From positions 71,949-135,948 of the forward strand of contig JADBYT010000024.1 in the NCBI GenBank assembly GCA_020402865.1: DNA of 64,000 nt, read 5' to 3'. The notes under the pieces were generated by a model, which saw only the letters and a program-made list of their open reading frames with translations, did not search any database and was not told the DNA's origin. How positions within the stretch are numbered: position 1 is the stretch's first letter; every line of letters begins with the position of its first letter. Below, piece by piece: positions 11 to 56,129 of the stretch. A program made the position numbers and the translations under genes. The DNA comes from Bacteroidota bacterium. Its GTDB lineage: Bacteria > Bacteroidota > Bacteroidia > Palsa-965.

Positions 11-1111
11 ATGGTGGTCTTTTGGGTGCTGGTGCTTGCGCTGGCCGTGCAGCTGTTTTATTTTCTGTTTTTCTTTCTGCGTCTTGCACGTTATAAAAAT
101 GCCGAAGGTGTAAACGAATTCCCTCCTGTTTCGGTTGTAATTTGTGCGCGGAATGAAGATGACAATCTGGTGGCTTTTCTGCCGTTGGTGCTGGCACAGG
201 ATTATCCTGAGTTTCAGGTAGTGGTGGTAAATGATTGTTCGTTTGATAATACCGAAGATATTCTCAAGGAGTTTTCTGAGCGGCATCCGCACCTGAAAGT
301 GGTTACTATTAAGGAAGATGAGTATTACAGCCACGGCAAAAAAGTGGCGCTCATGATGGGTATTAAAGGTGCCCGATATGAGCACCTGTTGCTTACCGAT
401 GCCGATTGCCGCCCGGCCAGCGCCAACTGGCTGCGGAGCATGGCCGCACAGTTTACCACCGAAACAGAAATTGTACTCGGCTACGGCCCTTATGAAAAAC
501 GCAGCGGTATGCTTAACAAGCTCATCCGTTTCGACGCGTTTTTCATCGCCCTGCAATACCTCTCGTTTTCAATGGCCCGAATTACCTATATGGGTGTGGG
601 CCGCAATCTGGCCTACCGCAAAGAACTTTTTTTCCGCCATAAAGGCTTTGCCTCCCACTACCATATTCAGTCGGGCGACGATGATTTGTTTGTGAATCAG
701 GCTGCTACGCGACGCAATACACGCGTGGAAGTGCGGCCCGACAGTTTTACACTTTCGGTGCCCGAACGGACTTTCAAGGCCTGGTGGCGGCAAAAACGCA
801 GGCACCTCACCACCGGTAAACGCTATAAATTCGGTCATAAACTGCTGCTAATAACCTATGTAGCCAGTCAGTGGCTGTTTTTCGGCACCTTTATTGCGGC
901 ACTCGTCCTGAATTTTCAGCCTTATGTCGTATTGGGCATCATGTTGCTGCGATTGCTGCTGCAAATGTTTATCTTTAAAAAAGCAATGGAGAAACTTGGC
1001 GAACACGACCTCCTCTTGCTGGTACCGTTCGTCGAAATTTTTCTCCTATTTTTTTACCCGGCACTTACATTTGCCGGCATATTCCAACGCAGGCGTAAAT
1101 GGATGACGTAA
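11..1111 (+). CDS. Membrane glycosyltransferase family 2 (synthase-like, N- and C-terminal TM segments); may be 5'-truncated at the window edge
   Basis: N-terminal TM helix, then 'VSVVICARNEDDNL' (GT2 DXD region), 'LLTDADCRP', 'QSGDDDLF', and a QxxRW-like 'WWRQKRR'. C-terminal hydrophobic helices. The reading frame stays open upstream to base 2. Confidence 0.75.
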   Translation: MVVFWVLVLALAVQLFYFLFFFLRLARYKNAEGVNEFPPVSVVICARNEDDNLVAFLPLVLAQDYPEFQVVVVNDCSFDNTEDILKEFSERHPHLKVVTIKEDEYYSHGKKVALMMGIKGARYEHLLLTDADCRPASANWLRSMAAQFTTETEIVLGYGPYEKRSGMLNKLIRFDAFFIALQYLSFSMARITYMGVGRNLAYRKELFFRHKGFASHYHIQSGDDDLFVNQAATRRNTRVEVRPDSFTLSVPERTFKAWWRQKRRHLTTGKRYKFGHKLLLITYVASQWLFFGTFIAALVLNFQPYVVLGIMLLRLLLQMFIFKKAMEKLGEHDLLLLVPFVEIFLLFFYPALTFAGIFQRRRKWMT

Positions 1112-1716
1112 TTGAGAATGAAAATTTATCCGACAAGGCGTTACACGACTACCGCCTTGTAAGGAAGGCGCTGGATGAGTCTGATCAGCGGGCGTATGCC
1201 GAACTGATGGGACGCTACCGCGACTCTGTTTACTTCATGCTGCTTAAAATGGTAAACAGCAAGGACGATGCGGAAGATTTAACCGTAGAAGCCTTTGGCA
1301 AAGCCTTTAAGCGCCTCAGCCAGTACACGCCAAACTACGCGTTCAGTACCTGGCTGTTTCGTATTGCCACAAATAACTGCATCGACTTTATCCGCCGCAA
1401 ACGCAAAAATACCTTCTCCATCGACCAGCCCATGAGCGACGATGAAGGCGGTGAACTTGTGCTCGATCTCCGCTCGGAAATGCTGGATCCGGAAGAGAAT
1501 GTAATGAAGAAGCAGAAAATTGCCCTGCTGCGCGAACTGGTGGATAAAATGAAGCCGCGTTACCGCACACTCATCGAAATGCGCTACTTCCAGGAACTTT
1601 CCTACGAAGAAATTGCGCAGGAACTCGATCTCCCGCTGGGCACCGTAAAAGCACAACTCTTCCGCGCCCGCGAATTCCTTTACAACGTGCTCAAAAATAC
1701 GCAGGGCAAGATTTAA
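1099..1716 (+). CDS. RNA polymerase ECF-type sigma-70 factor
   Basis: Region 2 'FSTWLFRIATNNCIDFIRRKRK' and region 4 HTH 'LSYEEIAQELDLPLGTVKAQLFRAREFL'. Overlaps the GT2 gene by 13 nt and sits 6 nt before rsmG. Confidence 0.85.
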   Translation: MDDVIENENLSDKALHDYRLVRKALDESDQRAYAELMGRYRDSVYFMLLKMVNSKDDAEDLTVEAFGKAFKRLSQYTPNYAFSTWLFRIATNNCIDFIRRKRKNTFSIDQPMSDDEGGELVLDLRSEMLDPEENVMKKQKIALLRELVDKMKPRYRTLIEMRYFQELSYEEIAQELDLPLGTVKAQLFRAREFLYNVLKNTQGKI

Positions 1717-9758: not shown

Positions 9759-10244
9759 TTACTTGTACTGGAGATTGTTTACCGATTCCTCAAATTCATT
9801 TTCAATAAAATCCCTCTGTGGATAATCGTCCCGGTAAATAAACCCGACATAACAATTTTCTTCATCAAGATCCAACTGTTTGATTAAGTGGTTGTAACAA
9901 AACTGCTCCGGTGGATGCTGCTCACAATATTTAAACCAGCGGCAGAATAATCTGAAGCGGTTTTCTGCCCGCCCGTCGGCATTGCTGCATATGTAGTAAA
10001 GTATTTTGTTGTTTTGACTAAACCAGTTCCTGATAATGTACGATATGGTGGAATAAACTTTCGCATCATGTGCGGGAAGCTCGGTACGGGAAATTTCAGC
10101 AAATGAAATAGTATATAAATCATTGCTGTTTGAAATTTCATTTATCAGATAATCGGATGTATGAGTAATAGATACTTTATAATATAATGATTGAGATGTG
10201 GCGAAATAATACGAATCCCCGTCGCGGATATAATCGTAATGCAT
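9759..10244 (-). CDS. Hypothetical protein (Tyr/Cys-rich, no recognised family) in a low-GC insert
   Basis: 161-aa ORF with clean ATG. Markedly AT-richer than flanking genes: sampled 60-nt windows run about 25-43% GC versus about 58% in the adjacent ABC gene. Possible Cys/His cluster 'FCRWFKYCEQHPPEQFCYNH'. Confidence 0.5.
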   Translation of the reverse strand: MHYDYIRDGDSYYFATSQSLYYKVSITHTSDYLINEISNSNDLYTISFAEISRTELPAHDAKVYSTISYIIRNWFSQNNKILYYICSNADGRAENRFRLFCRWFKYCEQHPPEQFCYNHLIKQLDLDEENCYVGFIYRDDYPQRDFIENEFEESVNNLQYK

Positions 10245-10532: not shown

Positions 10533-11303
10533 TTACTGCAAGTTTTGCGGCTGTTGCGGCATTCCAGTTCCCCATTGCCCGTATCCGCTGCGGTTTACGC
10601 GTTCGGCCAGCTCGTCTTCAAACGTCACCATTTTTTTGAGTACCGTGCTCAGCACGGCGAGCGCAGCAAGATAAAATACAGCCGCTATTCCGTTAATAAT
10701 CAATGATGTTTGCATGGATTCCTGCATCATTTGCTGCGTATCGAAGGTTTGAAAACGACGGATTTGCCCCATTTGGTCAAAAGTGCGGTTCATCGCAATA
10801 ACGGCGCCCACTATAGCCACAGCCACGCCGCCCATCCATATACCCCACCAGAGATTTACCGGTTTTTGCGGTTCGTGGGCATACTGCTCACCGTCGGCAC
10901 GCATGGCACGCTGGGTTTTGTTCCAGATTTCGGCAATCATCTGAAACGGGCGTACGAAGTTGAGAAACGGAACAAACCAGCCGCCAATGGTCCAGCCCAG
11001 CGCATAATCGGGCAGGGCAGGGTTTATGCGTTGCAGGTTTTCATAGGCCCGGTACATCCAGATCAGAAACAGAATGGGAAACACCAGTCCGGCCAGCCCG
11101 GTAACAAGACTGATGATTCCAGAGGTTAGAACCATGCCCAGATTATCGCGCACCGACATGGGGTCGGTAGCGATGCGGCTCATTGTGGAAGTCATGATCC
11201 ATTGCAGGGGCAGATTGATGATGTAGGCGGCAAACAACATCCAGAGTGTAATGCGCAGGTAGCGGTGCAGTTTCTGGTTTGGGTGAAGTTTGATGTAGTA
11301 CAT
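10533..11303 (-). CDS. DUF4328-like integral membrane protein
   Basis: Multiple TM helices. Motif 'GGWFVPFLNFVRPFQMIAEIWN' is typical of the Bacteroidetes DUF4328 family. Confidence 0.6.
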   Translation of the reverse strand: MYYIKLHPNQKLHRYLRITLWMLFAAYIINLPLQWIMTSTMSRIATDPMSVRDNLGMVLTSGIISLVTGLAGLVFPILFLIWMYRAYENLQRINPALPDYALGWTIGGWFVPFLNFVRPFQMIAEIWNKTQRAMRADGEQYAHEPQKPVNLWWGIWMGGVAVAIVGAVIAMNRTFDQMGQIRRFQTFDTQQMMQESMQTSLIINGIAAVFYLAALAVLSTVLKKMVTFEDELAERVNRSGYGQWGTGMPQQPQNLQ

Positions 11304-11305
11304 GG

Positions 11306-11968
11306 CTATGCGGGTGTTTCTGTTTTGGGAGTGGATGTGAGGTGTGGATATACCAATTTTTCAAGCCTAAAATATTGAAATAGGGTGATAATGCCTCCTG
11401 TAAAGCCCAAAATGGCTGCAAGCACCTGTGTCATGTAAACAATTACACTCATCTCCACGCGATAATTTTCGTAAACCCGGATCATGATAAAGCCAAACAA
11501 CTGAAGGGTTACAAAAAATGAAAAGCCAATTTGCCAGAGCATAATCGGATATGCTCTGGCGTTGTAATTCATACCGTATGGGAGTTTGGAAATGAGCAAC
11601 TGACGGCAGATTCTAAATTGCCGGAACGGGAAAAATAAGTTGAACAGCGGTATATACCAGCTTGCCGCAGCCAGTGAGGGGTTTATCCGCCTCTCGTCTT
11701 TAAAAGCGGTGGTTACATTCTTTGTGATGCGGAACATCCAGATGCCCACAAAAATGGCCGAAAGAAGCACCGAAAAAAACAAAAAAGCCACTACTGATGC
11801 TGTGATAGTCCGAAGAAAATTGGGGAGCTGCTGTTCGCTTTCCTGCACATATTGGCCAATAAAGTAACTGGATACAGCGATGAAAAGGGAGAAAAATAAA
11901 CCCGCGCCCAGACACAGCATTAATGCAACAGTAATTGCTTTAGCCGGAGAAACAGGCTTTTTCTGCAT
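11306..11968 (-). CDS. DUF4328-like integral membrane protein (tandem paralog)
   Basis: Same architecture and motif 'SWYIPLFNLFFPFRQFRICRQL'. Separated by 2 nt from the downstream paralog. Confidence 0.6.
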   Translation of the reverse strand: MQKKPVSPAKAITVALMLCLGAGLFFSLFIAVSSYFIGQYVQESEQQLPNFLRTITASVVAFLFFSVLLSAIFVGIWMFRITKNVTTAFKDERRINPSLAAASWYIPLFNLFFPFRQFRICRQLLISKLPYGMNYNARAYPIMLWQIGFSFFVTLQLFGFIMIRVYENYRVEMSVIVYMTQVLAAILGFTGGIITLFQYFRLEKLVYPHLTSTPKTETPA

Positions 11969-35874: not shown

Positions 35875-36825
35875 TTACGTTCTTAATCCCAAAGCCTTGA
35901 GCACGTTTCGGCCTTCATCGTGTATTTCCCATGCCAGTATGGCGCGATCGTCGCCTGTGGAAATGAGCAGATCGTGATAGTTGCTCCACAACAGGCGGTT
36001 TACCGAATTGTGGTGGCCGTTAAAACGTTCGCGGTTAAGACGTACAATAATATTACGCGTAGCGGGATCCCAGATTTTAACTGTTTTATCGCGGCTGCCG
36101 GTGGCAAAGTAATTTCCCTCGGGCGACCATACAATGCTGTAAATGGCGTAGTTGTGGGCCGGAATGGATTCGATGCGGTTGTAATTTTCATCCCACACAT
36201 TCAGGTGTGCATCTTTTCCGCCCGAAAGCAGGAAACTTCCGTCGGGCGACCAGCTCACACAATTTGCCGACTGGGCATGCGCTTCGAAGCAGGCAATTTC
36301 GGTTACTGCAGGCAGCTCGAAAATGCGCACGTTACCATCGCCCGAAGCCACCGCCAGCAAATTGCCGTTTGGATGCAGCGCAAGGCCGCGTACTTTGCCG
36401 GTGCAGAGTTTGCGGATTTTCAGCAACTCAAGTGTATCAGTATCGCCCACGGCCAGCTGCCCGTCGGCACCGGCCGAAAAAAACAGGCCATGAGCAGGCG
36501 CCACCAGCAGGTCGAACACGGCGGCCGCATGCAGTTGCAAAATTTTAATCTCGCTTCGCTTTATCGTATCAATAAAATGTATGCTGCCTGCACCTGTTCC
36601 GGCCAGCAGCACGTTTTGCGGCTGAAGATGCAGCAAACTGTACACCGGCGCAGGCAGCTGGGCCGTAAATCCGCCCTGGTGCCCGGTTTCAAGATCCCAG
36701 GAAGCGATAAATCTGTCGCTGCTTCCGCTAAGGATCTGATTGTGTGTAAACCCTTGAGCCAGTGCATATACTGCGCCACTATGGCCGGTAAGGGCATGCC
36801 GTTTGCGAATCACCGGTTCACTCAT
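35875..36825 (-). CDS. WD40-repeat beta-propeller protein
   Basis: Repeated WD units: 'SGSSDRFIASWDLETG', 'GGKDAHLNVWDEN', 'TGSRDKTVKIWDP', 'TGDDRAILAWE'. Start ATG 36825 ('MSEPVIRKRHALTGHSGAVYAL'); the track ORF extends to 36873. Confidence 0.75.
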   Translation of the reverse strand: MSEPVIRKRHALTGHSGAVYALAQGFTHNQILSGSSDRFIASWDLETGHQGGFTAQLPAPVYSLLHLQPQNVLLAGTGAGSIHFIDTIKRSEIKILQLHAAAVFDLLVAPAHGLFFSAGADGQLAVGDTDTLELLKIRKLCTGKVRGLALHPNGNLLAVASGDGNVRIFELPAVTEIACFEAHAQSANCVSWSPDGSFLLSGGKDAHLNVWDENYNRIESIPAHNYAIYSIVWSPEGNYFATGSRDKTVKIWDPATRNIIVRLNRERFNGHHNSVNRLLWSNYHDLLISTGDDRAILAWEIHDEGRNVLKALGLRT

Positions 36826-36899
36826 ACTGCAAAGATGGAGGGTTTTGCGTAAATTCGCGGAAGAGATTTTCATTCATTCACATTAAACTGCGCATTAGT

Positions 36900-49413: not shown

Positions 49414-50040
49414 ATGCACCCAACACAAAAAGCGCATCCCTGGCATGGCATATCGCCCGGAGCAGATGCACCCGATACAGTTACTGCATTTATTGAAATC
49501 GTTCCTGCGGATACCATCAAGTATGAAATTGATAAGGAAAGCGGTTATCTGAAAATAGATCGTCCGCAACTTTTTTCGAATGTGGTGCCGGCATTATACG
49601 GATTTGTGCCGCAAACCTATTGTGGTGATGAAATAGCGGCATACTGCGCAGCGCGAAGCGGAAGGCCTGTAACCAGTGGCGATGGTGATCCGCTGGATAT
49701 TTGCGTGCTCAGCGAAAGACCTGTTACACACGGGGATATTCTGGTTACTGCAATACCAATTGGCGGTTTCAGGCTAATCGACAAGAATGAAGCCGACGAT
49801 AAAATTATAGCAGTACTCAAATCAGATGCTGTTTACGGCGGTTTGAAGGATATTACGGAATGCCCGGTGGAACTCATTAACCGGCTCAGGCATTATTTTC
49901 TTACTTATAAAGTGATACCCGGCGAAGCACGTGTACCTGTTGAACTGGCTGCCATTTATGGTAAAGAGGAAGCCCGGCAGGTGATCAGGCACAGCATGAA
50001 CGACTATAATCACCGTTTTGGCACCGGGGCAAGGCAGTAA
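49414..50040 (+). CDS. ppa: Inorganic pyrophosphatase (family I, soluble)
   Basis: 'AFIEIVPADTIKYEIDKESGYLKIDRP', 'DGDPLDICVL' (Asp cluster of family I PPase). Confidence 0.85.
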   Translation: MHPTQKAHPWHGISPGADAPDTVTAFIEIVPADTIKYEIDKESGYLKIDRPQLFSNVVPALYGFVPQTYCGDEIAAYCAARSGRPVTSGDGDPLDICVLSERPVTHGDILVTAIPIGGFRLIDKNEADDKIIAVLKSDAVYGGLKDITECPVELINRLRHYFLTYKVIPGEARVPVELAAIYGKEEARQVIRHSMNDYNHRFGTGARQ

Positions 50041-50087: not shown

Positions 50088-50121
50088 AATGAATGCGGAT
50101 TATTGCGCATTCATTACCTTT
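50088..50121 (+). terminator. Possible terminator hairpin after ppa (weak U-tract)
   Basis: 'AAUGAAUGCG-gauuauug-CGCAUUCAUU' 10-bp stem followed by 'ACCUUUAAUU'. Confidence 0.3.
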
Positions 50122-50132
50122 AATTCAGGAAC

Positions 50133-53100
50133 ATGCCTTTCTCCTTAGTAACATATCCGGCCGGCGCTTTGCGTCATTATGTGCTGTGCATACTTTTTTG
50201 TGTGCTTGGGTTGGTACTTCACGGGCAGCAATATAATTTTCAGCAATACTCCGTAAACAACGGATTGCCGCACACACAAATCAACTGCGTTTTTCAGGAC
50301 AGCTCGGGTTATGTGTGGGTGGGTTCGGAAGGCGGGCTGAGCCGTTTCGACGGAAAAATATTTGAGACTTTCAGTTTTGGAGAGCAGTTGCCGGGGAATA
50401 ATATCACTGCTATCTCACAAACGGCAGAAGGAGTAATCGTTGCAACCAATAAAGCACTTTGCTGGTATCGCTCCGGGAAATTCAGCGCTCATCCTTTTCC
50501 GGTTAATTCCGGGTTAACACAAGTGAATCAATTTTTGCGCGGCGAGGGTGGTGAACTTTTGCTGTGTACAAACAGAGGTTTGTGGAAATACGAAAAACAT
50601 AAGTATTCGTTTATTGTTACGTCCACCCCGCTTGATCATCTATCCTTAAAATCGGCCACATTCGATTCACACAATAAACTCTGGGTGGGAAGCTCCAGCA
50701 ATGGGTTGTTTTGCCTTGTGAAAAATAATCAGGGCTATGCCAATGAGCCTTTTTCTGATCAGGATAAGCTGGTCACAAACCGGATCAGAGGAATTGTGGA
50801 AGTGGATAACCGCACACTCTGGATTGCTACTTCTGACAATGGGCTTTTCAGTTACGACGGACAAACGATGAACCGGGTAATATTGCCCGAGGGGATGAGT
50901 ACAACCTCTCTTACCTGCATGCAGCGCGATGCGGCAGGTGATATTTGGCTGGGCACATGGGGTAGCGGATTGCTGTATTATCACAACGGAATATTCCGCA
51001 ACCTTACACAGAAGAACGGACTTAACGACGATATTATTCTTTCCATACTTTGCGATAATCAGGGTAATATCTGGCTTGGTACATATCAGCAGGGGCTTAT
51101 TTTTTATTATGGGGAGATGTTTGTTACTTACACAGTCAAAGACGGACTGCCCAGTAACAATGTGCGTGCTGTACGTACAGACGGACAGGGGAATGTGTGG
51201 ATGGCTACATTGGTCGGGGTGTCAATGTTTGACGGAACGGAGTTTGTGAACTGGACAGCACAAAACGGATTAAGTAATAACCGGGTTGGGGCGCTGTCAA
51301 TTGATAAGAAGGGAAATGTGTATGCGGGTACATTTAGCGGAGAGATTAACATTATAAGACCGGGTAATCGCACTCCGGAAGTTATTTTCCCCGACAAGAA
51401 TAATAACCCGGGCGAAATATTGTCGTTATGCATTACCCGCGATGGAATGCTTTGGATCGGAACCGCCTCGCATGGATTATTTACATACAGCAACCGTAAA
51501 ATAGAAAGTTACAATACCGGCAATGAACTGCTTGGGGCTGTTATCTGGTCGATATATGAAGACTTTCAGGGCATTATCTGGCTGGGTACTTCTAAAGGAT
51601 TGTATATGCTTGATCATGGCAAGGTGGTTAGGCCATTGGAAAATAAACCCACACCTGCTGAAGAACTCGAACAGACGGTTTTCGATATTACGGGCGACGA
51701 AACCTATATTTATTTCGCTACCCAGCGAAGCGGTATCTGGCGATACAACCGTAAAATGAATAAGTATCAGATACTCAATCAACGTGAGGGAATTGGTTCT
51801 GATTTTACACGGGGGCTATTTTATCAGCCTGAAGCGAATGTGATGTTTGTAACTACTATTTTGGGTTGCGACAGAATAATTTTTCGTGAGAAGGATCAGT
51901 TAATCCAGCATTTCTGGCACAGAGACGGCATCGGAACTACAAATTTTACTCCGGCTACCATTACTACCGACAATAACGGACGTATCTGGTTTGGATCTGT
52001 GGATGGTGCGGTGGTGTATTCTCCTGCCTTGTCGCGTAAACGAAATCAGGTGCCCAAAGTTGAGTTTAAAGCGCTTCAGTTATTTAACCAGCCTGTTACC
52101 GACTGGAGTAACTATGCTGATTCGGTGATGCGTGATGGTTTGCCGTTTGATCCGGTATTTCCGTATAACAAGAATACGCTCACGTTTGTGTTTACCGGGA
52201 TTCAGTTTGGCACCGGATTAAACTTGAGTTTTGAATATAAGCTGATCGGGCGTGATACAGGTTGGGTAAAACTGAACAGTGGTAACTCCGTAAGTTTTAA
52301 CGATCTTGCTCAGGGCGAATATACATTTCTTTTAAAAGCACGTAATGATGATGATTATGTGAGTGAACCACGGTCGTATTCGTTTACCATTTCACCTCCG
52401 TTCTGGAAGTCCTCCTGGTTTTTCCTTGTCTCCACCGTTTGCCTGCTGATCATCATTTTTGCACTCATTTTTGTCTATCGCAATTTTCGCGAAGACTTTA
52501 TACGCGATCAGCGTTCACTGTATAATCATAATCTTACCGTTGGCCGGTTTGTATTATTCACTGCTGCATTTCTTTACCCGGTATCCGGCAGCCTTATCCG
52601 CATGTTTTCGGAGAGTACCAATTTGAACCTGCCGGTTATGTTTGCCATTGGTGTGCTGATGATGCTCACCGGTTTACTAAGCTATTCAGTACGTCTGATA
52701 AAAGAGCATACACACTTACTCGCTCGTTTTGAATATGGTCTTCTGATTTTTCATATGTATTATTTATGTTACTACAATAAACTTGCACCTGTACCGGTAA
52801 TTATGCTCATTTTGGTATTGTCGGCCATAGGTTTACTTGTTGATCGTTTAAGACAGCTGATTGCATTTGCATCCCTGTCCTTATTCTTATCAATATCCCT
52901 TGTTATTGTTATTCCTTCTACCCCTTACGGATACAACGGCTGGTTGTTTCTGCTTGCCATTCTGGTAGGATTAATTATAGCATTTATCAGTGTGATTACA
53001 CGTCTGAATTTGTTTAACCGCCTGATCTTTGCGGATACAATCATAAATAATTCCAGCAGTATTGTGCTGGCTGTGGATCAGGGCGGTTCTGTAGTTTTTG

Positions 53101-55397
53101 CCAGTAAAAGTGTCACCACCATTCTGGGGTATGAACAACATGAGGTGCTGGGCGACGGCTGGTGGAAAGTACGGTCTGATGATTATGTCGATAACCTCAA
53201 TCGTAAGCAGCAGGTGATAAATATGCGCGAAGCCCGCGAAACCTATATATCGCCTATAAAAACCAAAAACGGCCGTATTCGCTGGATTCAGTGGCAGGAT
53301 ACTATTCTTGAAGGTAATCTGAAGGTAGGTGTGGGGCTCGATGTGACCGACAGGCAAGAAATGGAAGAACGCTACCGGCATATTGTGGAAACTGCGAATG
53401 ATATTATTTATACTGCCGATTTTAAAGGTTGCTTTACATATACCAACGAGGTTGCGGTAAAAATTCTTGGGTATGAATTGTCTGAGCTCATCGGGCGGCA
53501 TTTCTCGGAGTTTGTGCATCCCGACTGGGTGCAGGAAGTCACTACATTTTACGCCAAACAGTTTCAGCGCCGTTTGCTTTCTACTACGCTTGAGTTTCCC
53601 GTAATCAGTGGCGATGGCGGTATTGTATGGTTAGGCCAAACCGTGCGCATTATTATTGATGACGAACATCCTGAACGTATAAAGGGGTTTCAGGCAATTG
53701 CACGGGATATTACAGAGAAAAAGCAATATGAGGAGGAGCTCGAAAAGCTGTCACTTGTGGCGAGCGAAACCATTAACGGCGTACTTATCTGCGACCCGGA
53801 AAGTAATATAGAATGGGTAAATGAAGGGTTTACACGGATTACAGGTTACTCACTTGCCGAGGTAAGAAACCGGCGTGCGGGCGATGTGCTTAAAGGCGAA
53901 AAAACCAATATGGCCACCATTTACAATGCCCGCGAACGTGTGCGCACAGGGCAGGGCTTTGAGGTAGAGCTGCTGGTATATAACCGTGATGGAAATGAAA
54001 TCTGGATTTCGGTTTCAAACACACCTATTGTGGATGAAAATGGCAGATTACTGAAACAGATTGAAATTTTTACCGACATCTCCGAAAAGAAACGTTACGA
54101 ATTACAGCTCAGCCGCTATTCTAAGAATCTTGAGCTTTTAAATAATACCCGGCAACGCCTGCTCGATGCAAACACCGTAGAATCGCTTGCGGCAAGTGTG
54201 CTTCCGGTGTATTTCGATCATATTCATTACACCAGCCGTGTAATTCTTGCGCTTATTGATGAACGGCAGGATCTTATCGAGGTGTATGAAGTAACTAAAG
54301 AAAATGTCGGCGACAAACCACAGTATATATTATTGTCTCAGGCCGATTTTCTTCAGCTCGACCATATCCGGTTGTCGCGCTACAGGCTTATTACCGAGCT
54401 GAATGAGCAGAATGCAATTTCTATTTTCGACCAACGGCTTTTGGCATCCGGTGTGCGTTCCTATCTGGCAACCACACTGCAAATTGAAGGAAAGGTAAAT
54501 GGTTTTCTTTCTCTTTGCTCGGACTACGAGGATGCGGTTGACGACAGCGATATTGACCTTATGGATGAAGTGGCAGATGTTATGGCTTCTACCATTCAGC
54601 AGATCCGCTACCGCGAAATTATCCAGCAAAAAAACAACGACATTTCCTCAAGCATCAATTATGCCCGCCGCATTCAGAATGCGATTCTTCCGCCCGAAGA
54701 AGTGCTGCGCAAGGAACTTGGTGATATGTTTGTCCTCTTCAGGCCCAAAGACATTCTTTGCGGCGATTATTACTGGGCCGAAACACGTGGCAACTACATT
54801 TTTGTGGCAGTGGCCGACAGTACGGGGCACGGTGTGCCGGGTGCGCTGCTCAGTCTGATGGGACACAACCTGCTCAATCAGGCCATCCGCGAACGGCATC
54901 TTACACGCCCTGCAGCTATTCTCGATTTCTTAAACCTCAGCATTCAGCAAACGCTGAACCAGTATAAACAGGCCGGCGAATTGCATGATGGTATGGACAT
55001 AGCCCTCTGTGTGTTTGAACGCAAGAGCCGCACCATGATGTTTGCAGGGGCTATTAACCCGCTTTACATTGTGCGCGGGCAGGAACTCATACAGGTGAAA
55101 GGAAACCGCTTTTCAATTGGCAGTTATTTCGACTTTAAGTCGCGGCCTTTTGATCATCAGGAAGTGGAAATTAAGTCGGGCGATATGCTTTATATGTTCA
55201 CCGATGGTTATCCCGATCAGTTTGGCGGCGATCACGACCGTAAACTTTCTTATCGCCGGTTCCGCGAATTACTTATTCAGGTGGCTTCATTGCCAGCCAT
55301 TGAACAGCGCGAAATACTTACGGCCCGCTTCAGCGAATGGATGGGCAAAGGTAATCAGACCGACGATGTGTGTGTGCTGGGTATTCGTGTAGATTAA
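50133..55397 (+). CDS. Giant multidomain sensor: periplasmic two-component-regulator propeller (Reg_prop repeats) + Y_Y_Y domain, one TM helix, polytopic membrane module, three PAS domains, GAF-like domain, C-terminal PP2C/SpoIIE serine phosphatase. No histidine kinase or receiver domain.
   Basis: N-terminal TM/signal. About 14 Reg_prop repeats (e.g. 'GLPHTQINCVFQDSSGYVWVGSEGGLSRFDG'). Y_Y_Y 'FEYKLIGRDTGWVKLNSGNSVSFNDLAQGEYTFLLKARN'. TM 'WFFLVSTVCLLIIIFALIFVY' plus about 6 further helices. PAS cores 'IVETANDIIYTADFKGCFTYTNEVAVKILGYELSELIG' and 'INGVLICDPESNIEWVNEGFTRITGYSLAEV'. SpoIIE/PP2C 'FVAVADSTGHGVPGALLSLMG', 'DGMDIALCVFE', 'MFTDGYPDQFGG'. No H-box or HATPase_c motifs seen. Confidence 0.8.
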   Translation: MPFSLVTYPAGALRHYVLCILFCVLGLVLHGQQYNFQQYSVNNGLPHTQINCVFQDSSGYVWVGSEGGLSRFDGKIFETFSFGEQLPGNNITAISQTAEGVIVATNKALCWYRSGKFSAHPFPVNSGLTQVNQFLRGEGGELLLCTNRGLWKYEKHKYSFIVTSTPLDHLSLKSATFDSHNKLWVGSSSNGLFCLVKNNQGYANEPFSDQDKLVTNRIRGIVEVDNRTLWIATSDNGLFSYDGQTMNRVILPEGMSTTSLTCMQRDAAGDIWLGTWGSGLLYYHNGIFRNLTQKNGLNDDIILSILCDNQGNIWLGTYQQGLIFYYGEMFVTYTVKDGLPSNNVRAVRTDGQGNVWMATLVGVSMFDGTEFVNWTAQNGLSNNRVGALSIDKKGNVYAGTFSGEINIIRPGNRTPEVIFPDKNNNPGEILSLCITRDGMLWIGTASHGLFTYSNRKIESYNTGNELLGAVIWSIYEDFQGIIWLGTSKGLYMLDHGKVVRPLENKPTPAEELEQTVFDITGDETYIYFATQRSGIWRYNRKMNKYQILNQREGIGSDFTRGLFYQPEANVMFVTTILGCDRIIFREKDQLIQHFWHRDGIGTTNFTPATITTDNNGRIWFGSVDGAVVYSPALSRKRNQVPKVEFKALQLFNQPVTDWSNYADSVMRDGLPFDPVFPYNKNTLTFVFTGIQFGTGLNLSFEYKLIGRDTGWVKLNSGNSVSFNDLAQGEYTFLLKARNDDDYVSEPRSYSFTISPPFWKSSWFFLVSTVCLLIIIFALIFVYRNFREDFIRDQRSLYNHNLTVGRFVLFTAAFLYPVSGSLIRMFSESTNLNLPVMFAIGVLMMLTGLLSYSVRLIKEHTHLLARFEYGLLIFHMYYLCYYNKLAPVPVIMLILVLSAIGLLVDRLRQLIAFASLSLFLSISLVIVIPSTPYGYNGWLFLLAILVGLIIAFISVITRLNLFNRLIFADTIINNSSSIVLAVDQGGSVVFASKSVTTILGYEQHEVLGDGWWKVRSDDYVDNLNRKQQVINMREARETYISPIKTKNGRIRWIQWQDTILEGNLKVGVGLDVTDRQEMEERYRHIVETANDIIYTADFKGCFTYTNEVAVKILGYELSELIGRHFSEFVHPDWVQEVTTFYAKQFQRRLLSTTLEFPVISGDGGIVWLGQTVRIIIDDEHPERIKGFQAIARDITEKKQYEEELEKLSLVASETINGVLICDPESNIEWVNEGFTRITGYSLAEVRNRRAGDVLKGEKTNMATIYNARERVRTGQGFEVELLVYNRDGNEIWISVSNTPIVDENGRLLKQIEIFTDISEKKRYELQLSRYSKNLELLNNTRQRLLDANTVESLAASVLPVYFDHIHYTSRVILALIDERQDLIEVYEVTKENVGDKPQYILLSQADFLQLDHIRLSRYRLITELNEQNAISIFDQRLLASGVRSYLATTLQIEGKVNGFLSLCSDYEDAVDDSDIDLMDEVADVMASTIQQIRYREIIQQKNNDISSSINYARRIQNAILPPEEVLRKELGDMFVLFRPKDILCGDYYWAETRGNYIFVAVADSTGHGVPGALLSLMGHNLLNQAIRERHLTRPAAILDFLNLSIQQTLNQYKQAGELHDGMDIALCVFERKSRTMMFAGAINPLYIVRGQELIQVKGNRFSIGSYFDFKSRPFDHQEVEIKSGDMLYMFTDGYPDQFGGDHDRKLSYRRFRELLIQVASLPAIEQREILTARFSEWMGKGNQTDDVCVLGIRVD

Positions 55398-55442
55398 GGA
55401 TCCTGGTTTCGTTTGCAAAGCGGCTTTGCGTATTTTTACAGT

Positions 55443-56129
55443 ATGAAAGCAATCCGATTTGTTCTGCTCCTGTCTGTTGTATTACTGCTCACCTCGTTTC
55501 GTCCGGCCGATACGTGGAGTTGTAAACTGGGCTTGCTTAAATACAATGGTGGAGGCGACTGGTATGCCAATTTAGAGACGTCGCTGCCGAATCTGGCTCG
55601 TTTTTGCAATGAACAGACAGGCACCCGCATCAATCCTGAACAGGGCATTGTGGAAGCGGGGAGTTCCGAAATATTCAACTATCCTTTTGTACACATGACG
55701 GGTCATGGCAACGTGATCTTTTCGGCTCAGGAGGCCAACAACCTGCGTAATTACATGATGGGCGGCGGCTTTCTGCATATTTCCGATAATTACGGCATGG
55801 ATAAGTTCATGCGGCCGCAAATGAAAAAGGTATTCCCCGAACTCGACTTTGTAGAAATTCCGTTTTCACATCCGGTCTATCATCAGAAGTTTGATTTTCC
55901 CAACGGCCTGCCCAAAATCCACGAGCACGAAGGCAAATCGCCCAAAGGTTTCGGACTCATCTGGCAAGGTCGTCTGGTGTGCTTTTACGATTATGAATGT
56001 GATCTTGGCGATGGCTGGGAAAGCCCCGAAATACATAAAGACAGCCCCGAAGCACGCCTCAAAGCCCTGCGTATGGGGGCCAATCTGGTGCAGTTTGCCT
56101 TAATGGGCGGTGAGCAGCAGAAGAAGTAA
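55443..56129 (+). CDS. Hypothetical secreted protein, DUF4159-like (tentative family assignment)
   Basis: Signal peptide 'MKAIRFVLLLSVVLLLTSF' (ATG 55443). 'YPFVHMTGHGNVIFSAQEANNLRNYMMGGGFLHISDNYG' resembles a DUF4159 / ThuA-like fold. Confidence 0.45.
   Translation: MKAIRFVLLLSVVLLLTSFRPADTWSCKLGLLKYNGGGDWYANLETSLPNLARFCNEQTGTRINPEQGIVEAGSSEIFNYPFVHMTGHGNVIFSAQEANNLRNYMMGGGFLHISDNYGMDKFMRPQMKKVFPELDFVEIPFSHPVYHQKFDFPNGLPKIHEHEGKSPKGFGLIWQGRLVCFYDYECDLGDGWESPEIHKDSPEARLKALRMGANLVQFALMGGEQQKK

Follow-up and report, generated by a model that had tools for sequence, protein, structure and literature searches.

A 1754-residue reading frame in the genome of an uncultured Bacteroidota bacterium raises the question of whether the propeller sensor of hybrid two-component systems (HTCS) has here been joined to a PP2C/SpoIIE phosphatase in place of a histidine kinase, as the initial annotation proposed, and of what such a phosphatase would act on. 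In HTCS proteins, the sensor leads on to HisKA and HATPase_c and then to a receiver and an AraC-type DNA-binding domain. Sensor PP2C phosphatases, for their part, are a recognised but little-studied class of bacterial signalling output. We have analysed the gene within the whole stretch of DNA in which it lies (64,000 nucleotides, hereafter the window), together with its orthologues and their loci.

A single intact gene for a sensor phosphatase

The gene is one ORF on the plus strand (50133..55397), with an ATG start and no internal stop, in exact agreement with the coordinates first assigned to it. The encoded domains follow one another in the order signal or anchor segment, Reg_prop propellers, Y_Y_Y, seven transmembrane (TM) helices, three PAS domains, GAF, a long helix and a SpoIIE/RsbU-type PP2C (Table 1). 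When the complete protein was scanned with Pfam, the PAS families matched three stretches each and GAF matched weakly. The domain reading of the initial annotation was correct in all details, as judged from the Pfam scan, hydropathy, orthologue alignment and an AlphaFold model, and the motifs quoted in it are present (ADSTGHG at residues 1561-1567, DGMDIA at 1619-1624 and FTDGYPDQFGG at 1689-1699). Sequence comparison and predicted models show seven membrane helices, a PAS/GAF/helix/PP2C chain and an HTCS-like periplasmic module.

A long ORF of this kind could be an assembly or frameshift fusion of a propeller sensor gene with a PAS-GAF-PP2C gene, or could conceal a diverged histidine kinase core between the PAS and SpoIIE regions, and both concerns had been raised with the initial annotation. 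However, the same full-length gene is found in 34 protein clusters (independent clusters at 90% identity with an identical Pfam set, 45-86% identical, 1721-1754 aa) and in 21 GTDB species-level MAGs, and the ORFs in independent MAGs are likewise full-length (1738-1782 aa), which rules out a frameshift or fusion artefact. Pfam gave no match to HisKA, HATPase_c or Response_reg anywhere in the 1754-aa protein at E ≤ 1, as had been noticed from the sequence, and none to an HTH_18/AraC DNA-binding domain; the NCBIfam histidine kinase models match the PAS region only. In the model of the C-terminal 433 residues (1322-1754), we observed GAF, a 47-residue helix and PP2C and no further fold, and all stretches of the protein have a domain assignment. 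These results exclude a cryptic histidine kinase and leave no space for a concealed kinase core, and the probability that the ORF is an artefact or hides such a core is negligible.

Table 1. Features of the sensor phosphatase gene and its immediate surroundings (positions in the window)
Feature	Residues (aa)	Position	Strand	Evidence or remark
ppa (inorganic pyrophosphatase), conserved gene upstream, same strand		49414..50040	+	Recurs in orthologue loci; proximity only
Hairpin, 10-bp stem, between ppa and sensor start codon		50088..50115	+	
Whole gene, sensor serine/threonine phosphatase	1754 in all	50133..55397	+	NCBI MCA6364481.1, annotated 'PAS domain S-box protein'
N-terminal hydrophobic segment, signal peptide or membrane anchor	11-31	50163..50225	+	Hydropathy peak 2.09
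Periplasmic Reg_prop beta-propeller region	~35-690	50235..52202	+	Pfam Reg_prop, 8 stretches, 127 bits; PDB matches
Y_Y_Y Ig-like domain	692-753	52206..52391	+	Pfam PF07495, 43.2 bits
TM1, immediately after Y_Y_Y	761-783	52413..52481	+	Hydropathy peak 3.15; helix 10-38 of model
6-TM membrane module	~801-960	52533..53012	+	Hydropathy, orthologue alignment, AlphaFold model
PAS1	~968-1075	53034..53357	+	Scanned alone (aa 960-1078): PAS 30.6 bits, PAS_3 29.7 bits
PAS2	1079-1193	53367..53711	+	Pfam PAS best stretch 1079-1193; TIGR00229
PAS3	1215-1321	53775..54095	+	Pfam PAS_9 1215-1318; orthologue identities
GAF domain	~1346-1471	54168..54545	+	Scanned alone: GAF 23.0 bits, GAF_2 23.4 bits; 3o5y; model
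Long signalling helix, links GAF to PP2C	~1472-1518	54546..54686	+	Single helix 151-197 of model; invariant columns; 6k4e alignment
PP2C/SpoIIE phosphatase domain	1554-1753	54792..55391	+	Pfam SpoIIE; 6k4e match; invariant Asp
Terminator-like hairpin and T-run directly 3' of sensor stop codon		55414..55437	+	

An HTCS-type sensor in the periplasm

The propeller region matches PDB entries 4a2l (1.4e-54), 3v9f (2.2e-48) and 3ott (7.2e-23), and the propellers are followed by Y_Y_Y, as expected of the HTCS-type module that had been recognised here. BT4663 (PDB 4a2l and 4a2m) is an example of a Bacteroides HTCS. By these alignments, the periplasmic part, a double propeller with Y_Y_Y, is genuinely homologous to the solved Bacteroides HTCS sensor domains. 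No SusC/SusD or glycan-utilisation genes were found near the gene.

The membrane module

TM1 is succeeded by six further TM helices, as hydropathy, orthologue alignment and the AlphaFold model all indicate, so that the "second roughly 6-TM module" of the initial annotation has proved real. The seven helices have positive-inside loops, and this puts the propeller outside and the PAS domains inside. Signature residues of the 6-TM module are R805, Y815-P816, H874, N882 and R957, and its last helix continues into PAS1.

The 6-TM module is the least ordinary part of the sensor phosphatase. It is covered by no Pfam or NCBIfam model. Among the TM blocks of 15 orthologues, no Pfam family recurred at E ≤ 10 (one MHYT match at 0.0067 and two 7tm_3 matches), and NCBIfam gave no match to the TM block; in the absence of any consistent match, 7TMR-DISM, MHYT and MASE were ruled out as its identity. 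A Foldseek search of the 6-TM model against the PDB returned nothing significant. What comes closest to the predicted fold, at 10-11% identity, is the 6-TM type of membrane anchor seen in adenylyl cyclases and in diguanylate cyclases. It is worth noting that the module is also found at the N-terminus of histidine kinases (HisKA-HATPase_c), PP2Cs (SpoIIE) and a few GGDEF proteins.

The PAS, GAF and helical segments

Conservation is highest in the linker, PAS3 and PP2C, and of the domains PAS3 is the best conserved across the orthologues. PAS3 has a LOV-like sequence without the photoactive Cys, and NCBIfam YtvA/LOV models match far below their cut-offs. At the position of the LOV motif GxNCRFLQ it reads RRAGDVLKG; because the cysteine motif is missing, we do not regard it as a LOV photosensor. 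The GAF region, scanned alone, exceeds the PF01590 cut-off (23.0 against 22.4 bits), its profile matches the GAF structure 3o5y (8.5e-5), and orthologues have precomputed GAF or GAF_2 matches; score and fold both place it in the GAF family. The signalling helix carries a conserved KN-DI-SI-YA-RIQ-AILPP motif, which the alignment to 6k4e shows to be held in common with SiaA.

The phosphatase domain

The C-terminal domain scores 80.1 bits with SpoIIE (PF07228), against a gathering cut-off of 25. The PP2C aspartates D1562, D1619, D1622, D1691, D1695, D1744 and D1745, together with GHG at 1565-1567 (DxxGHG), are invariant among 12 orthologues down to 49% identity (alignment A2), and by sequence the metal-binding site is complete. 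SiaA-PP2C (6k4e) is the best match of the domain both in sequence (4.7e-46) and in fold: with the GAF-helix-PP2C model (pLDDT 82), Foldseek gave E 9.5e-22 and a target-normalised TM-score of 0.90 at 34% identity, which assigns the predicted structure to the PP2C fold. The top NCBIfam match is also the SiaA model, NF038263, at 188.9 bits against a cut-off of 700 and over profile positions 402-658 only (the C-terminal 257), and so the protein is not a full-length SiaA equivalog. The nearest relatives of the domain are SiaA, RssB, SpoIIE and the RsbU domain of Rv1364c, and PstP/Stp-type phosphatases rank lower.

Gene neighbourhood and the search for a partner

The genes of a partner switch, phosphatase included, usually lie in one cluster. 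Pfam searches of essentially all ORFs of at least 70 aa in the window identified no STAS, no RsbW-type or HATPase_c_2-type kinase, no SiaC/DUF1987 and no Hanks kinase, in keeping with the earlier remark that no partner-switch target is encoded there; for four of these ORFs the Pfam content was read from the precomputed annotation of an 81%-identical locus (L001). Likewise, the 10 kb on either side of the orthologues and of three more distant relatives contain no STAS, HATPase_c_2 or SiaC partner gene, six related loci having been inspected with precomputed Pfam. Thus, a STAS-like substrate and an RsbW-like kinase are not encoded with the phosphatase at any of these loci. In a further clustering of 1081 ORFs drawn from 79 GTDB loci, the only neighbours to recur are ppa, either DUF4159 or a pseudouridine synthase, and secreted proteins that carry no annotation; not one of these is STAS-like or kinase-like. 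Three conserved small ORFs downstream on the minus strand (104, 156 and 293 aa) have no Pfam match, and those of 156 and 293 aa have signal-peptide-like N-terminal segments. DUF7793, which adjoins some TPR-PP2C relatives, was considered as a link to STAS and gave no significant match to PDB sequences. Several neighbours have an envelope flavour, namely PBP1C, an OmpA-family protein, T9SS-tail proteins and PpiD/SurA-like rotamases.

A proposed mechanism and its alternatives

We lean, with modest confidence in the explanation as a whole, towards a single-polypeptide transmembrane sensor phosphatase that acts on a partner-switching target. It is reasonable to suppose that a PP2C output implies such a target: SiaA, the closest relative of solved structure, is itself a partner-switch phosphatase, and in other phyla STAS proteins are the targets of PP2Cs that carry periplasmic sensor domains (PMC11619594; PMC9239204). 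The domain order, the absence of kinase and receiver, the homology to HTCS sensors, the seven helices with their positive-inside loops, the GAF-helix-PP2C model, the SiaA match, the invariant aspartates, the strong conservation of linker, PAS3 and PP2C and the occurrence of the 6-TM module with several kinds of output speak for this explanation, whereas the lack of partner-switch genes in the window and the inspected related loci speaks against it. The protein would act as a homodimer. A ligand in the periplasm, which the analogy with HTCS sensors suggests is probably a glycan or a molecule from the envelope, would alter how the helical linker packs, possibly in concert with a cue from the membrane or the cytoplasm that the 6-TM, PAS and GAF modules detect. 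The change in packing would turn the PP2C dimer on or off. When active, the phosphatase would strip phosphate from Ser/Thr of a small partner-switch protein, either a STAS-type antagonist or SiaC-like, encoded elsewhere in the genome, and the dephosphorylated protein could then swap its partner and alter transcription or enzyme activity. The sensor phosphatase would thus fill the role of a sensor histidine kinase, with dephosphorylation as its output.

Two alternatives concern the output itself. The PP2C-like domains of P. aeruginosa RssB are among the fold matches, which leaves room for a non-catalytic adaptor or pseudo-phosphatase that, like RssB, signals by partner binding only. We consider this very unlikely, as all seven metal-binding aspartates and DxxGHG are invariant across the orthologues and the domain is closer to active SiaA (34% identity) than to RssB (15-16%). 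More weight is due to a fairly unlikely alternative in which the phosphatase is active and has no partner-switch target, and instead reverses phosphorylation by eukaryote-like (Hanks) Ser/Thr kinases or acts on other phosphoproteins, e.g., components of the envelope or of gliding/T9SS. The absence of a linked STAS or kinase partner from every locus inspected could be explained in this way, the envelope-flavoured neighbours would fit it, and PP2C phosphatases are known to act opposite both kinds of kinase, Hanks and partner-switch (PMC9239204). The domain nevertheless belongs to the SpoIIE family, with SiaA, RssB, SpoIIE and the Rv1364c RsbU domain ranked above the PstP/Stp type, and there are no Pkinase genes in the window; a partner-switching target encoded elsewhere is the reading that we prefer.

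Prevalence and significance

The initial annotation implied that wiring a propeller to a PP2C is rare, which the databases contradict: all of the 120 best database relatives have the Reg_prop + Y_Y_Y + SpoIIE architecture, and JGI already gives it an automatic name that includes 'serine phosphatase RsbU'. Public sequence data for Bacteroidota contain many proteins of this design, and the sensor phosphatase is therefore largely ordinary. No publication on the architecture came to light in literature searches that combined Reg_prop or Y_Y_Y with SpoIIE, or the two-component regulator propeller with phosphatase. The gene shows that Bacteroidota re-employ the glycan-sensing periplasmic sensor of HTCS with a phosphatase output, an arrangement that is frequent in databases. 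If the substrates were identified, an entire tier of signalling in Bacteroidota would become accessible, which could comprise from hundreds to thousands of genes, with several in each genome. These findings extend current understanding and overturn none of it.

A wider proposal, which we regard as possible rather than probable, is that the 6-TM block is an undescribed ligand-sensing membrane domain with a cyclase-anchor fold, interchangeable before Bacteroidota histidine kinases, PP2Cs and diguanylate cyclases, and that the propeller-PP2C proteins form a large unstudied route, parallel to HTCS, for sensing the envelope or glycans via Ser/Thr dephosphorylation of unlinked targets. The module, which is uncatalogued and common to kinases, phosphatases and cyclases, presents itself as a definite candidate for a domain family of its own. 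It also offers a means of testing the idea that sensor modules are swapped among these outputs via a common helical linker.

Comparison with known systems

The 6-TM module can be compared with the membrane anchors, likewise of six TM helices, found in class III adenylyl cyclases and in the diguanylate cyclase ImcA (PDB 6r3q, 8sl3, 7yzi and 8wcn), although identity is only 10-11%, the output domain differs and the comparison is made from a predicted model. In relation to Bacteroides HTCS (BT4663), the Reg_prop + Y_Y_Y module is homologous (1.4e-54), whereas both the HisKA-HATPase_c core and the fused receiver and AraC domain are missing from the sensor phosphatase.

The siaA operon also carries the kinase, substrate and cyclase that belong to SiaA, whereas no partner gene is linked to the sensor phosphatase. 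Like SiaA of the Pseudomonas aeruginosa SiaABCD system, the protein is a membrane-bound sensor PP2C, and the two have in common every catalytic residue and the helix, with its YA-IQ-AILP motif, that precedes the domain. SiaA is an experimentally demonstrated partner-switch phosphatase for SiaC pT68 and is a dimer in crystals (PMC7647112). The sensory parts differ, with two membrane spans and a HAMP domain in SiaA (PMC7647112) and propellers, seven TM helices, PAS and GAF in the sensor phosphatase. The short Reg_prop-Y_Y_Y-TM-SpoIIE proteins of Bacteroidota (1040-1240 aa), which JGI names 'ligand-binding sensor domain-containing protein/serine phosphatase RsbU', have the same input and output domains (38-46% identity in PP2C and 24-29% in the propellers) and are likewise without linked partners. 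In those whose sequence was read, one TM helix and a coiled coil lead directly to PP2C, and the 6-TM module is missing; most also lack PAS and GAF. Chlamydial RsbU and other PP2Cs with periplasmic sensors follow the same logic, from periplasmic sensor through the membrane to cytoplasmic PP2C, but their sensor fold differs and their RsbV/RsbW partners are known (PMC11619594; PMC9239204).

Domain architecture of the sensor phosphatase

The sensor protein is identical to NCBI MCA6364481.1, annotated there only as 'PAS domain S-box protein'. The Pfam domain set bears out the initial annotation, which had read the protein as a propeller sensor with a PP2C/SpoIIE output, and that observation stands as written; its three quoted motifs are located at aa 1561-1567, 1619-1624 and 1689-1699. 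When pieces were scanned alone, the PAS1 region (aa 960-1078) scored 30.6 bits and aa 1325-1499 exceeded the Pfam GAF cut-off (23.0 vs 22.4). The proposed sensor module of the Bacteroides hybrid two-component systems (HTCS) is also evident, as aa 32-756 are homologous to solved HTCS sensor domains (4a2l, 1.4e-54; 3v9f, 2.2e-48; 3ott, 7.2e-23). SusC/SusD and glycan-degrading genes are absent among the sensor's neighbours, and the neighbourhood therefore gives no clue to the ligand.

Features in the window and in related loci (nucleotide positions refer to the window unless a locus is named)
Feature	Position	Strand	Remarks
DUF6169 gene	9759-10244	-	
DUF4328 gene pair	10533-11968	-	adjacent genes
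WD40-repeat propeller protein, bacterial	35875-36873	-	332 aa; very strong WD40 score, 156 bits
ppa	49414-50040	+	family I inorganic pyrophosphatase
Hairpin, 10-bp stem	50088-50115	+	in ppa-sensor gap; consensus match only
Sensor ORF	50133-55397	+	1754 codons, ATG start, no internal stops
Reg_prop	eight stretches		Pfam, 127 bits
Y_Y_Y	aa 692-753		Pfam
PAS families	three stretches for each family		Pfam
PAS3	53775-54095 (aa 1215-1321)	+	LOV/YtvA-like in NCBIfam scans
GAF	aa 1372-1489		weak Pfam matches on whole protein
SpoIIE	aa 1554-1753		Pfam, 80 bits vs cut-off 25
Terminator-like hairpin and T-run	55414-55437		3' of sensor stop codon; consensus match only
DUF4159 gene	55413-56129	+	downstream of sensor
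ORF, 104 aa	56245-56559	-	no Pfam match
ORF, 156 aa	56881-57351	-	no Pfam match
ORF, 293 aa	57374-58255	-	no Pfam match
Tandem Reg_prop-Y_Y_Y-SpoIIE genes	L005 8001-14879		1183 and 1072 aa, 5.9-Mb genome; PAS in just one
DUF7793 ORF	L063 10723-11220	+	also directly after PP2C gene in L070 and L079

Hydropathy indicates an N-terminal hydrophobic segment (aa 11-31), a strong TM segment immediately after Y_Y_Y (aa 761-783) and further segments as far as aa 960. Aligned orthologues and an AlphaFold model covering aa 752-972 (pLDDT 76 overall, 80-93 in the core; pTM 0.70) resolve seven helices. Basic loops come after TM1, TM3, TM5 and TM7, which puts the propellers on the periplasmic and the PAS domains on the cytoplasmic side. 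The final TM helix is continuous with PAS1 via a conserved RLNLFNRLIFADT junction.

The two refuting conditions set by the initial annotation, a histidine-kinase core concealed in the protein and an artefactual fusion of two genes, were both checked with a negative outcome. NCBIfam histidine-kinase models do match the protein, through the PAS region only, and Pfam gives no HisKA, HATPase_c or receiver match at E<=1, in agreement with the initial annotation. A cryptic kinase core is ruled out because aa 1322-1754 are modelled (pLDDT 82) as GAF, a single 47-residue helix and PP2C, with no further fold. A fusion artefact is ruled out by full-length orthologues in many clusters and MAGs. The same Pfam set was found in 34 90%-identity clusters in a database search (1721-1754 aa, identity 45-86%), and the full GAF-PP2C region is present in 21 MAGs among GTDB species representatives (identity 47-89%), all uncultured and Bacteroidia or Flavobacteriales-like, with orthologue ORFs of 1738-1782 aa where the contig permits.

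An uncatalogued six-helix module

The part most deserving follow-up is the uncatalogued 6-TM module, which is common to kinases, phosphatases and cyclases. The TM block has no consistent Pfam match across 15 orthologues at E<=10 and no NCBIfam match. Its profile retrieved 323 proteins at E<=0.001 from 1.84 billion representatives, many of which carry the six helices at the extreme N-terminus. Pfam architectures in a sample of the 323 include 6TM-HisKA-HATPase_c, 6TM-PAS-kinase, 6TM-PAS-GAF-kinase, 6TM-SpoIIE, 6TM-PAS-GAF-SpoIIE, TPR-6TM-PAS-SpoIIE and Reg_prop-Y_Y_Y-7TM-PAS-SpoIIE. By an approximate motif count, the outputs among the best 150 representatives are about 56 kinases, 54 PP2Cs and 5 GGDEFs, and R805, Y815-P816, H874, N882 and R957 each recur in about 60-80% of members. 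In a fold comparison the predicted 6-TM model agrees best with 6-TM anchors of adenylyl and diguanylate cyclases, and the next match scores 9.1; the diguanylate cyclase ImcA is a homodimeric 6-TM + GGDEF protein (PMC10904736). The likeness is at fold level only (10-11% identity, predicted model), which makes it a lead and not family membership.

Conservation and gene neighbourhood

Across orthologues, conservation is highest in PAS3, the linker helix and PP2C, and the propellers, TM block and GAF diverge fastest. This pattern is consistent with variable inputs into a fixed output. PAS3 is the most conserved domain of all, being 99% identical to that of an orthologue with 81% overall identity. 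It is without the photoactive cysteine, as RRAGDVLKG replaces GRNCRFLQG of LOV.

The ppa gene lies 92 nt 5' of the sensor on the same strand. This pairing is kept in 13 of the 15 informative orthologue loci, the outer flanking genes vary, and a relative with 28% identity also has the pyrophosphatase gene close to it; the pairing may be plain synteny or may be functional. The DUF4159 gene probably starts at ATG 55443, which yields a 228-aa product with a signal-like N-terminus and agrees with the orthologous locus L001; the alternative TTG 55413 overlaps the terminator-like hairpin. Among the three ORFs that follow, those of 156 and 293 aa have a signal-peptide-like start, those of 104 and 156 aa are conserved 3' of the sensor/DUF4159 pair in 5-6 GTDB orthologue loci, and that of 293 aa recurs in L001 only. 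The neighbourhood also encodes PBP1C, an OmpA-family protein, T9SS-tail proteins and PpiD/SurA-like rotamases.

The phosphatase and its putative substrate

Among solved structures, the phosphatase end is closest to the PP2C domain of Pseudomonas aeruginosa SiaA (6k4e; profile E-value 4.7e-46; Foldseek E 9.5e-22, TM-score 0.90 normalised to target, 34% identity). Only the final 257 positions of the NCBIfam SiaA model are matched, and the score of 189 bits is well under the equivalog cut-off of 700. All PP2C metal-binding aspartates, like the GHG motif, are invariant among 12 orthologues with identities as low as 49%. The enzyme is expected to be catalytically active.

SiaA removes phosphate from SiaC, which has an anti-sigma-antagonist-like fold, within a partner-switch pathway (PMC7647112). 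Because of the similarity to SiaA, the target here is, by analogy, most likely a partner-switch substrate. The initial annotation had seen no partner nearby, and Pfam scans likewise found no STAS, RsbW-type kinase, SiaC/DUF1987 or Hanks kinase in the window's ORFs, nor any STAS, RsbW-type kinase, SiaC or Hanks kinase within 10 kb of three orthologues and three more distant relatives. When 1081 ORFs from 79 GTDB loci were clustered without prior, no conserved neighbour of STAS, RsbW, SiaC or Hanks type emerged. We lean slightly towards a mechanism in which periplasmic sensing, possibly also membrane or cytoplasmic, would control a dimeric phosphatase of the RsbU/SiaA type whose target is an unlinked partner-switch protein, the substrate being the weakest link.

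At a distance of 48 kb from the sensor, window 1099-1716 (+ strand) encodes an ECF-type sigma factor, with no anti-sigma or STAS gene identified beside it. Three GTDB Bacteroidia loci have a ~664-aa PP2C gene of the TPR-TM-PP2C group with a DUF7793 (PF25056) protein of 133-165 aa encoded 3' of it on the same strand. The DUF7793 protein matches no PDB sequence significantly and could represent a candidate partner family.

Distribution of the architecture

SpoIIE and Reg_prop are present in all 120 best database matches, and Y_Y_Y in all but one; propeller-to-PP2C wiring is thus a frequent, automatically annotated Bacteroidota architecture. Besides the 34 close orthologues, most of the 120 are proteins of 1040-1240 aa, named 'ligand-binding sensor domain-containing protein/serine phosphatase RsbU' by JGI; those whose sequence was read pass from a single TM and coiled coil directly into the phosphatase. 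In GTDB Bacteroidia MAGs (loci L031-L087), the commonest PP2C-domain relatives are ~700-aa proteins (42-47% identity in PP2C), often in several copies per MAG and at times in tandem, with no STAS or kinase neighbours beside them; in L031, whose protein was read in its entirety, TPR repeats are combined with a single TM and PP2C.

The sensor finding is real and was correctly read, and the protein belongs to the modular sensor PP2C phosphatases, a class that is widespread and already catalogued but unstudied. Full-text literature searches returned no paper treating the propeller-PP2C architecture. The general principle is already published. Known PP2Cs with periplasmic sensor domains come from Chlamydia and Campylobacterota (PMC11619594, PMC9239204).
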